A stretch of DNA of 61,172 nucleotides from Candidatus Woesearchaeota archaeon (GTDB taxonomy: Archaea > Nanobdellota > Nanobdellia > SCGC-AAA011-G17 > JACPNG01): NCBI GenBank assembly GCA_964455655.1, contig CAYVWZ010000001.1, positions 58,825 to 119,996 on the forward strand, in the 5' to 3' direction. Below, in pieces: positions 22,057 through 23,296 of the stretch (position 1 is its first letter; every line of letters starts with the position of its first letter). The notes below the pieces were generated by a model. It was not told the origin of the DNA and did no database searches. It saw nothing but the letters and a program-made list of their open reading frames with translations. A program made the position numbers and the translations under genes.

Positions 22057-22536
22057 ATGGAATCATTTACAAAATTAAACTCAGCACATGTAAAAGATCT
22101 TTTACAAATATTACAAGAACAATACCAAACAGGAAAGATTAAACTACCTTATCGTTTCTATAGAAATAACAAAGGAAGAATATTTATCGTAAGCCCCGAT
22201 ATAGAAAAAATTGATTTTAAAAAATTACGAATAAACAATCTAGGATTATACTTTGCAAATCACTCTGATAACTCATTACGACTTACCATAGAAGGAAGCC
22301 AAATTATAGGCCCATTAGCAACAAAAAACGTTATAGAAATAAGCAAAGAAGAAGTAACAGAATGGATGAGAGGAGAACCATTAAACAAAACAATCACCCA
22401 AACAGAATTTGTTATTATTAAACACGAAAATGACTATCTCGGATGCGGAAGAAAATCAGGAGAAACTATTGCAAACTTCCTACCCAAGAGCAGACGCATA
22501 AAGAGCTACAAAACACCAGAACTTATGACTGAATAG
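22057..22536 (+). CDS. NIP7/RsmF-C-terminal PUA-like RNA-binding protein
   Basis: LGLYF, LRLTIEGSQIIG, EWMRGE, LGCG...NFLPKSRR. Confidence 0.7.
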   Translation: MESFTKLNSAHVKDLLQILQEQYQTGKIKLPYRFYRNNKGRIFIVSPDIEKIDFKKLRINNLGLYFANHSDNSLRLTIEGSQIIGPLATKNVIEISKEEVTEWMRGEPLNKTITQTEFVIIKHENDYLGCGRKSGETIANFLPKSRRIKSYKTPELMTE

Positions 22537-23296
22537 GTCTTCTCAACTTTAAAACCATAATCAATCCAATAATAAACATAGGCAACACCAACAACTGACC
22601 CATCGTCAAAGGACCGAGAACAAACCCCACTTGAGGATCAGGAGCACGGAAAAACTCTATAATAAACCTTAACACCCCATACATCATAATAAACATCCAA
22701 AATAAGAACCCATCACGAAACCTCTTATTACGAATATTCCACAACACACCAAACATAAAGAAATTCTTTAATGACTCATACAACTGAGAGGGATGACGAT
22801 ACACACCCTCTTGATTAAACTCAACACCCCAAGGAAGACTTGTAACACGACCCACTAATTCACTATTCAAAAAATTACCAATACGCCCAAGAGCAAGACC
22901 AAGAGCAGCAGGAATAACAACAATATCAGCAAGCTTGTAAAAACTAACCTTATGCTTTCTACAAAACCATAATGCAACAAGAATAATACCAATTAATCCT
23001 CCATGGAAACTCAAACCACCCTGCCATATGGCAAAAACTTGCAATGGATTCTGAAGATAATATGAAAGATTATACGCAAGAACATAGACAATACGAGAAC
23101 CTACAATAACCCCAACAATAGCCCATAATAAAAATTCTTCAATATCATCCTTTGAAAAAGGCAATTCACGCTCTTTTGATAGTTTGACTAAGAAAAAATA
23201 GGCAAGAACAAACCCAATAACATACATCAAACCATAATATCTCACTTGTAAAGGGCCTAGAGAAAACAAAACCGGGTCAATAGTATTCACAAACAT
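22523..23296 (-). CDS. lgt: Prolipoprotein diacylglyceryl transferase
   Basis: IDPV.FSLGP.QVRYYG, WQGGLSFHGG, LGRIGNFLNSELVGR, HPSQLYE, YGVLRFIIEFFR; start ATG 23296. Confidence 0.95.
   Translation of the reverse strand: MFVNTIDPVLFSLGPLQVRYYGLMYVIGFVLAYFFLVKLSKERELPFSKDDIEEFLLWAIVGVIVGSRIVYVLAYNLSYYLQNPLQVFAIWQGGLSFHGGLIGIILVALWFCRKHKVSFYKLADIVVIPAALGLALGRIGNFLNSELVGRVTSLPWGVEFNQEGVYRHPSQLYESLKNFFMFGVLWNIRNKRFRDGFLFWMFIMMYGVLRFIIEFFRAPDPQVGFVLGPLTMGQLLVLPMFIIGLIMVLKLRRPIQS

Follow-up and report, generated by a model that had tools for sequence, protein, structure and literature searches.

A bacterial-type prolipoprotein diacylglyceryl transferase on the chromosome of a Candidatus Woesearchaeota archaeon and the lipoprotein pathway that it may serve

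The genome of a Candidatus Woesearchaeota archaeon (GenBank assembly GCA_964455655.1; 0.93 Mb, 37% GC, 88% complete) carries a full-length gene for Lgt, the prolipoprotein diacylglyceryl transferase that is regarded as a hallmark of bacteria. The gene is found in a stretch of 61,172 nucleotides (positions 58,825 to 119,996 of the 120-kb contig CAYVWZ010000001.1), which is called the window throughout this text. With a probability of about 0.75, this gene is native to the archaeal chromosome and would encode a functional Lgt of bacterial type that takes part in a lipoprotein pathway. A preliminary description of the window, made from the letters of the DNA, had predicted bacterial-style protein lipidation in this organism. 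That prediction is supported by an intact Lgt, by the presence of the partner enzyme LspA on the same contig, and by a marked enrichment of lipobox-bearing proteins in the genome. In what follows, G000 designates the window's own genome and other G numbers designate the genomes of relatives.

The lgt open reading frame (ORF) starts with ATG and encodes a full-length product of 257 amino acids. An alternative TTG start at position 23341 would add 15 residues and create an overlap with the upstream gene; the ATG is favoured because homologues measure 252-258 amino acids. The product matches PF01790 over profile positions 1-239 of 240 (5e-81, 272 bits; cut-off 24.9) and the NCBIfam equivalog TIGR00544 (241 bits; cut-off 118.9), and the E. 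coli Lgt of PDB entry 5azb matches it at 2.6e-52. The three Lgt motifs named in the preliminary description are all literally present, as GRIGNFLNSELVGR, RHPSQLYES, and RFIIEFFR. In the alignment to E. coli K-12 Lgt, from which residue numbers are taken, Y26, R73, H103-GG, D129, R143, N146, E151, G154, H196, S198, Y201, Y235, R239, E243, and R246 are retained. These positions are invariant in 120 of the 120 closest homologues, except for N146 (119/120), E243 (112/120), and R246 (118/120). An AlphaFold2 model built with 38 homologues reached a pLDDT of 85.4 and a pTM of 0.83, and a Foldseek search of this model against the PDB returned 5azb as the sole match at E ≤ 0.001 (E 1.5e-16, TM-score 0.80). 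The earlier view that the gene is intact is borne out by both family scores, the catalytic residues, and the fold. All the sequence and fold criteria tested place the protein in the Lgt family, and the enzyme itself is ordinary; its enzymatic activity is what we infer from its sequence.

The contig is archaeal because it bears a complete archaeal rRNA operon (Table 1), and lgt belongs to the archaeal chromosome. Since Lgt is typical of bacteria, the gene or the whole contig might be suspected of being bacterial material mis-binned into an archaeal genome, and the second-best representative of Lgt among sequences clustered at 50% identity does come from a bacterium of the candidate phyla radiation, Peregrinibacteria (48% identity). 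However, lgt lies 19 kb from the archaeal rRNA operon on a contig of 120 kb, the gene for the RNase P subunit p30 is close by, and the composition of lgt equals the genome mean (GC 0.357 and GC3 0.312, the ORF means being 0.368±0.027 and 0.264±0.045). In addition, 140 of the 150 high-quality genomes in the phylum sample have Lgt, and several of these genomes consist of a single contig. The probability of such an artefact is practically negligible, and contamination was rejected on the basis of linkage and composition. The genes for LspA, the Lit-like protein, Cfa, and the CarF-like protein described below are also host-like in composition, and the nearest named homologues of Lgt are all labelled 'Candidatus Woesearchaeota archaeon' or 'archaeon'. 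Around lgt, a search for sigma-70 promoters and terminators performed no better than on shuffled sequence; promoters of this type are not applicable to an archaeon.

The preliminary description had also suggested a search for lspA and lnt. An LspA of 137 amino acids is encoded on the lgt contig outside the window (G000:C1:47537-47950, minus strand), about 34 kb from lgt and about 11 kb before the window start. This protein scores 95 bits with PF01252 and 83.2 bits with TIGR00077 (cut-off 73.95) and matches S. aureus LspA (6ryo) at 2e-12; both catalytic aspartates are retained within GNAIDR and FNLADS, which align with the corresponding 6ryo motifs. LspA is not known to have any substrate other than diacylglyceryl-modified prolipoproteins. 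The outcome for lnt is negative: Lnt (TIGR00546) has no match in the window's own genome and none above the cut-off among 21 genomes. A third membrane protein, encoded at G000:C11:795-1439 (minus strand), falls in the Lit family (PF07314, 110 bits, cut-off 24; TIGR01906, 82.5 bits, cut-off 74.8), whose characterised members shift an ester-linked acyl chain. Its gene is present in 25 of 41 relatives and stands directly beside lgt in G023, G001, and G011 and beside lspA in G021. The protein is a member of the family and not a demonstrated equivalent of Lit.

Both Lgt and LspA are widespread among related archaea. Within the same order, Lgt was detected in 54 and LspA in 58 of 61 genomes, the figures for high-quality genomes being 34 and 35 of 35. 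In the phylum sample (151 genomes, all assigned to the 'same class'), Lgt was detected in 141 and LspA in 137. Both genes are present in 135 of these genomes and both are missing from 8, while Lgt occurs alone in 6 and LspA alone in 2 (Fisher p = 2e-8). Because of this phylum-wide presence and joint loss, Lgt and LspA are regarded as an old, vertically kept pair whose members are lost together. Thus, Lgt is not peculiar to the window but a core gene of the whole class. Some relatives contain additional members of the Lgt family: two in all in G057, three in G111, and four in G034, where one canonical gene (243 bits) is accompanied by three divergent ones (73-77 bits).

Among representatives clustered at 50% identity there are 1536 Lgt homologues at E ≤ 1e-30. 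A FastTree phylogeny was computed from 162 sequences: the 150 best-ranking cluster representatives together with sequences from relatives, from E. coli, and from two bacterial metagenome-assembled genomes (MAGs). In this tree, the own order groups with named Woesearchaeota in one clade; the supports of deep nodes are 0.06-0.64, and labels are available for 6 of 30 representatives (Woesearchaeota twice, 'archaeon', Peregrinibacteria, Pasteurella). Neither a donor lineage nor a single acquisition of Lgt can be claimed, because the deep nodes are unsupported and few tips are labelled.

Enrichment of lipobox proteins in the genome had been put forward in the preliminary description as a test of protein lipidation. 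The census was carried out on 1136 crude, non-overlapping ORFs that contain 95% of the assembly sequence, with our own PS51257-like regular expression instead of SignalP, applied from every candidate start codon. The rule demands K or R in the first 7 residues and a lipobox preceded by six uncharged residues, with the test residue at positions 15-35. Expected counts were scaled from the counts of polar residues at the test position, with Cys making up 1.24% of residues. Cys was found at +1 in 36 ORFs when 7.2 were expected (p = 2e-14) and, under a stricter rule, in 28 ORFs when 2.8 were expected (p = 7e-19), so that the refutation fails. The consensus is L-[ATV]-[GA]-C-[GTS], and about 28 of the matches look like classical lipoproteins. 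Among the matches submitted to Pfam are a DsbA-like thioredoxin (1.8e-37), a nuclease of the staphylococcal type, a cupredoxin, a PrcB_C protein, and an esterase; the domains carried by the lipobox proteins are of extracytoplasmic type.

Three paralogous lipobox proteins are encoded outside the window, at G000:C2:68619-69575, C6:16707-17738, and C7:33116-34114. They carry an apparent alpha/beta hydrolase domain of the esterase/polyhydroxybutyrate-depolymerase/phospholipase-carboxylesterase type, recognised by a family scan in the C2 protein and by eye in the C6 and C7 proteins. Lipases anchored at the surface would be well suited to a lipid-scavenging organism.

Three candidate substrates had been proposed within the window. 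The first, an FKBP-type peptidyl-prolyl isomerase, begins with MKKFLIMMLVLGLVIIGG followed by C and passes the PS51257-like rule. Its catalytic domain is closest to bacterial cytoplasmic FKBPs of 140 amino acids that have no signal peptide. The lipobox Cys is kept in four FKBP homologues whose hydrophobic N-terminal extensions end in a Cys motif (ILGG-C, MIG-C, LAG-C, and ISG-C); a fifth (P0200) ends in NANA-A and lacks the Cys. This FKBP was rightly singled out and is the sole convincing candidate Lgt substrate within the window. The ORF at 58211-58531, which begins with MKRNNITSTLIGASLLATINA followed by C, has the sequence described for it but is weak as a substrate, failing the rule because of Asn at -2; it has no paralogue in the genome. 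The ORF at 36763-36966 had already been described as the weaker case, and both its sequence and its weakness are confirmed; it also fails the rule through Asn at -2. Because of an overlap with the TTG that is the nominal start of ORF 35928-36932, its status as a real gene is uncertain. Neither ORF was accepted as a firm substrate, and both are kept as weak candidates.

The same census (strict counts) was extended to five other genomes of the class. Among those with Lgt and LspA, G017 (700 of 737 kb sampled) has 17 lipobox proteins with 1.7 expected (p = 3.5e-12), and G064, which belongs to a family other than that of the window genome (400 of 774 kb sampled), has 11 with 0.87 expected. Enrichment in these two is thus 10-13-fold. 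Among genomes devoid of both enzymes, G112 (490,885 bp, one contig) has 1 with 0.56 expected and G088 (534 kb sampled) has 2 with 1.3 expected, that is, no enrichment. In genome size and GC content, G112 resembles Nanoarchaeum equitans, which has an archaeal host. The fifth genome, G137 (581 kb sampled, about 58% of about 1 Mb), also lacks Lgt and LspA and has 10 with 1.6 expected (p = 7e-6); members of this class can thus have lipoproteins in the absence of Lgt.

In archaea, the lipobox Cys of exported proteins can be lipidated by AliA and AliB, as in Haloferax volcanii (arCOG02177/02178; PMC12462473). These proteins do the same job as Lgt; however, they attach archaeol and belong to an unrelated or very remotely related family, here presumed to be DUF63 (PF01889). 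All six-frame ORFs were searched with a hidden Markov model (HMM) derived from 35 DUF63 proteins. The highest scores were 304 bits in G137, 39.6 in G112, 17.5 in the own genome, 13.7 in G088, 12.6 in G017, and 8.7 in the sampled part of G064; the G137 protein is a strong member of the family (2.5e-60). A search for AliA/AliB had been recommended earlier, and its outcome is negative: DUF63 is not detectable in the own genome, where the alignment of the 17.5-bit protein is badly gapped (control, G137 at 304 bits), nor in G017 or the sampled half of G064. That protein resembles, by eye and not by family scan, a DedA/SNARE-associated membrane protein, and no DUF63 member was revealed when another twenty polytopic proteins from this genome were scanned with Pfam.

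In the six genomes, therefore, lipobox enrichment accompanies either Lgt and LspA (three genomes) or a strong DUF63 protein (one genome), and never both together. This alternation fits a replacement of the archaeal lipidation route by the bacterial one, although the sample is small; in the own genome, a replacement of the AliA route by Lgt and LspA is suggested because no DUF63 gene is detectable. G137 offers a contrast case within the same class, with its DUF63 gene (G137:C3:42170-42976, minus strand) and about 10 lipobox proteins, of which three stand in tandem (G137:C2:13604-17025). The weak DUF63-like ORF of G112 lies around G112:C1 309012 (plus strand), in the genome with a single lipobox candidate.

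The following pathway may be proposed. About 30 proteins whose signal peptide ends in L-(A/T/V)-(G/A)-C, such as the FKBP, the DsbA-like thioredoxin, the nuclease, the cupredoxin, and esterases, would be exported. At the outer face of the membrane, Lgt would move the glyceryl-lipid moiety of a phosphatidylglycerol-type lipid onto the Cys thiol, and LspA would then remove the signal peptide ahead of the lipidated Cys. The Lit-family membrane protein may subsequently shift one acyl chain onto the new N-terminus. In this way, the bacterial pathway would stand in for the archaeal AliA route.

Such a pathway needs a lipid donor. GGGPS was found neither in the own genome nor in any of the 21 genomes searched (0/21). 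CDP-alcohol phosphatidyltransferases (PF01066, PgsA-type) are also missing from the own genome, whether of bacterial or archaeal type, and from 16 of 21 genomes. Since the genes for the archaeal backbone (GGGPS) and for the phosphatidylglycerol head group (PF01066) are both lacking, the organism would have to acquire its lipids. The donor is somewhat more probably than otherwise an ester-linked diacyl phosphatidylglycerol taken from another organism. This donor is favoured because the genome encodes the cyclopropane-fatty-acyl-phospholipid synthase Cfa, a CarF-like desaturase, and the Lit-family protein, together with a weak PlsC-like acyltransferase match (40 bits), and no GGGPS or PgsA. The substrate of Cfa is the unsaturated acyl chains of membrane phospholipids, and known members of the CarF/TMEM189/FAD4 family either synthesise plasmalogens or introduce a double bond into the sn-2 chain of phosphatidylglycerol. 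The CarF-like protein stays below the plasmanylethanolamine desaturase equivalog NF045946 (198 bits; cut-off 500). In G009, Cfa adjoins Lgt.

In the window, Cfa is grouped at 12829-15819 (minus strand) with an FAD_binding_4 oxidoreductase and a 185-amino-acid ORF without family, which may constitute a two-step module for acyl-chain methylation and reduction like the 10-methyl fatty acid pathway. Elsewhere in the genome there are two matches to the MprF-type 'lysylphosphatidylglycerol synthase TM region' (PF03706), at G000:C3:65162-66133 (minus strand) and C17:1-923 (minus strand), with E values of 8.8e-24 and 2.4e-50 in the order listed. The genome also encodes BacA/UppP, a GT4 (MraY/WecA-like) transferase, and SpoIIM.

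The same pathway could run on another donor. Lgt would then use archaetidylglycerol obtained from an archaeal host, and lipoproteins would carry thioether-linked archaeol, as described for Haloferax lipoproteins (2026 preprint). DPANN archaea with known hosts draw their lipids from archaeal hosts, a model that is discussed in PMC7242380, and a genome without a pathway for either type of lipid leaves the donor unfixed. Nevertheless, the residues that contact the phosphate and glycerol of phosphatidylglycerol in E. coli Lgt are unchanged across the archaeal clade, with no sign of retooling for the opposite glycerol stereochemistry. Moreover, the Lit-family enzyme, if it acts as Lit does, needs an ester-linked chain, and the substrates of Cfa and of the CarF-type desaturase are fatty-acyl or alkyl chains and not saturated isoprenoids. 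The members of the class that lack Lgt also include G112, which has the size of the genome of Nanoarchaeum equitans, the partner of an archaeal host. An archaetidylglycerol donor is therefore rather unlikely, and an ester-linked phosphatidylglycerol is the donor retained in the rest of this text.

Several observations weigh against a Lgt-dependent pathway fed with ester lipids. G137 is enriched in lipobox proteins in spite of having neither Lgt nor LspA, so that lipobox proteins alone are no proof of Lgt dependence. The equation of DUF63 (PF01889) with AliA/AliB is a presumption for which no support was found in the literature, and at 88% completeness of the own genome the absences of DUF63, PgsA, and Lnt are not certain. 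The Lit-like protein reaches 46 bits with the Lit equivalog NF051877, whose cut-off is 400, and 16 of 41 relatives have no member of the family; for these reasons, both the acyl-shift step and the argument for ester lipids that draws on Lit are weak. A true full-length Cfa was found in no more than about 7 of 41 relatives. According to PMC11868695, no measurement of the lipid composition of these archaea has ever been made.

The case of G137 could also mean that Lgt is kept for a function unrelated to lipoproteins, while an archaeal enzyme not yet recognised lipidates the lipobox proteins; the divergent Lgt paralogues of some relatives, for instance the four Lgt-family genes of G034, hint at diversification. 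This explanation is very improbable, given that the gain and loss of Lgt coincide with those of LspA and that the catalytic residues are invariant. It is further opposed by the occurrence of DUF63, which is strong in the Lgt-less G137, whereas neither the own genome nor G017 nor the half of G064 that was sampled has a detectable member, and by the fact that LspA is not known to act on anything but diacylglyceryl-modified prolipoproteins. A role of Lgt in lipoprotein formation is thus preferred.

The closest characterised counterpart is E. coli Lgt (5AZB/5AZC; PF01790, TIGR00544), a member of the same family with about 36-45% identity, the same seven-helix fold (TM-score 0.80), and the same catalytic and phosphatidylglycerol-binding residues, which is likewise partnered in its genome with LspA and lipobox substrates. 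The periplasmic 'head' insertion of the E. coli enzyme (about residues 165-180) is shorter in the window protein. In contrast to E. coli, the window genome is that of an archaeon without recognisable phospholipid synthesis and without Lnt downstream in the pathway, and the donor lipid would have to come by import. The Lgt-LspA-Lit pathway of Firmicutes that yields the lyso-form (Enterococcus, Bacillus cereus, Lactobacillus) comprises the same three gene families and also lacks Lnt. However, the archaeal Lit-like protein scores far below the equivalog cut-off, is found in about 60% of relatives, and has a putative activity only. Compared with AliA and AliB, presumed DUF63 proteins, a member exists in the Lgt-less G137, which has lipobox proteins, and none is detectable in the window genome. 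Compared with all characterised cases of Lgt, the host is an archaeon without lipid synthesis and apparently without an AliA-type enzyme.

Archaea are said to have no homologue of Lgt, Lsp, or Lnt, and the account of AliA and AliB is built on that absence (PMC6098224, PMC12462473). Public databases already name proteins of this kind 'prolipoprotein diacylglyceryl transferase [Candidatus Woesearchaeota archaeon]'. The Lgt and LspA genes are therefore not new to the databases, and it is the specialist papers that deny or omit them. A literature search for Woesearchaeota in combination with lipoprotein, signal peptidase, or diacylglyceryl transferase returned no report. Cfa has been noted in five Woesearchaeota MAGs (PMC10936187), and there has been published speculation on the uptake of lipids from bacterial hosts (PMC11868695, PMC8204110); these three papers do not mention Lgt, LspA, or lipoproteins. 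The statement that archaea have no Lgt or Lsp needs correction, because both genes belong to the core set of a very large class of archaea, in which their catalytic residues are intact and fitting substrates occur.

A broader proposal, which is tentative and which we regard as somewhat doubtful as a whole, is that this DPANN class (Woesearchaeales, Pacearchaeales, and relatives) has replaced the AliA route with Lgt, LspA, and often Lit, running on ester phospholipids stolen from bacterial hosts, and that its membranes, at least partly of bacterial type, are remodelled by Cfa and CarF-type enzymes. If true, the lipid divide would have been crossed in nature on a large scale, and the pathway would provide a genomic marker to separate bacteria-associated from archaea-associated nanoarchaea. 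The significance lies in the location of Lgt and in what it implies for the membrane. The question of which lipids uncultured, lipid-auxotrophic archaea contain, and whether their hosts are bacteria, becomes testable.

The window features discussed in this work are collected in Table 1. The stop codon of the S8 subtilase gene is separated from the lgt ATG by 7 nt on the same strand, which makes co-transcription of the two genes as operon partners probable. The N-terminus of the subtilase is MKKWVILSILLIVIPMVLGA followed by P, with neither Cys nor lipobox. On the other side, the PUA-like gene runs towards lgt and shares 14 nt with its 3' end.

Table 1. Features of the window, with positions counted from its first nucleotide
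Feature	Position	Strand	Evidence or remark
FKBP-type peptidyl-prolyl isomerase, signal peptide and lipobox VIIGG-C	4523..5017	-	FKBP_C 3e-23
FAD-binding oxidoreductase overlapping cfa	13368..14774	-	FAD_binding_4 1.1e-13; NCBIfam weak only
cfa, cyclopropane-fatty-acyl-phospholipid synthase	14698..15819	-	CMAS 6.3e-81; NF008686 562 bits (cut-off 400)
PUA-like protein (RsmF C-terminal type)	22057..22536	+	PF13636 6.4e-09
lgt, prolipoprotein diacylglyceryl transferase	22523..23296	-	PF01790, TIGR00544, 5azb
S8 subtilase, secreted, C-terminal membrane anchor	23304..26045	-	Peptidase_S8 1.2e-37
RNase P subunit p30, archaeal/eukaryotic marker, upstream of the S8-lgt pair	26079..26654	-	PF01876 3.3e-18
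Weak lipoprotein candidate, 67 aa	36763..36966	-	...ATLGNS-C
CarF/FAD4-type lipid desaturase	39786..40466	-	PF10520 1.8e-59
Archaeal 16S-tRNA-23S rRNA operon, complete	42126..46835	-	RF01959 1408 bits, RF02540 2482 bits
Possible lipoprotein, 106 aa	58211..58531	+	MKR...LLATINA-C; no Pfam/NCBIfam match

A conserved lgt neighbourhood was considered and rejected. In 11 relatives, none of the genes for the S8 protease, p30, and glutamyl-tRNA synthetase (GluRS) occurs within 1.5 kb of Lgt, and the PUA-like gene alone recurs (G004). The PUA-like gene adjoins Lgt in the window and in G004, and LspA in G013 and G015.

Two further features of the window deserve mention. A full-length, bacterial-type RelA/SpoT protein with HD_4, RelA_SpoT, TGS, and ACT domains is encoded in this archaeal genome at 29807-31723 (minus strand) and would be a (p)ppGpp synthetase/hydrolase. 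The tRNA located between the 16S and 23S rRNA genes (45165-45276, minus strand) spans 112 nt, compared with 71 positions in the model, and an intron is probable.

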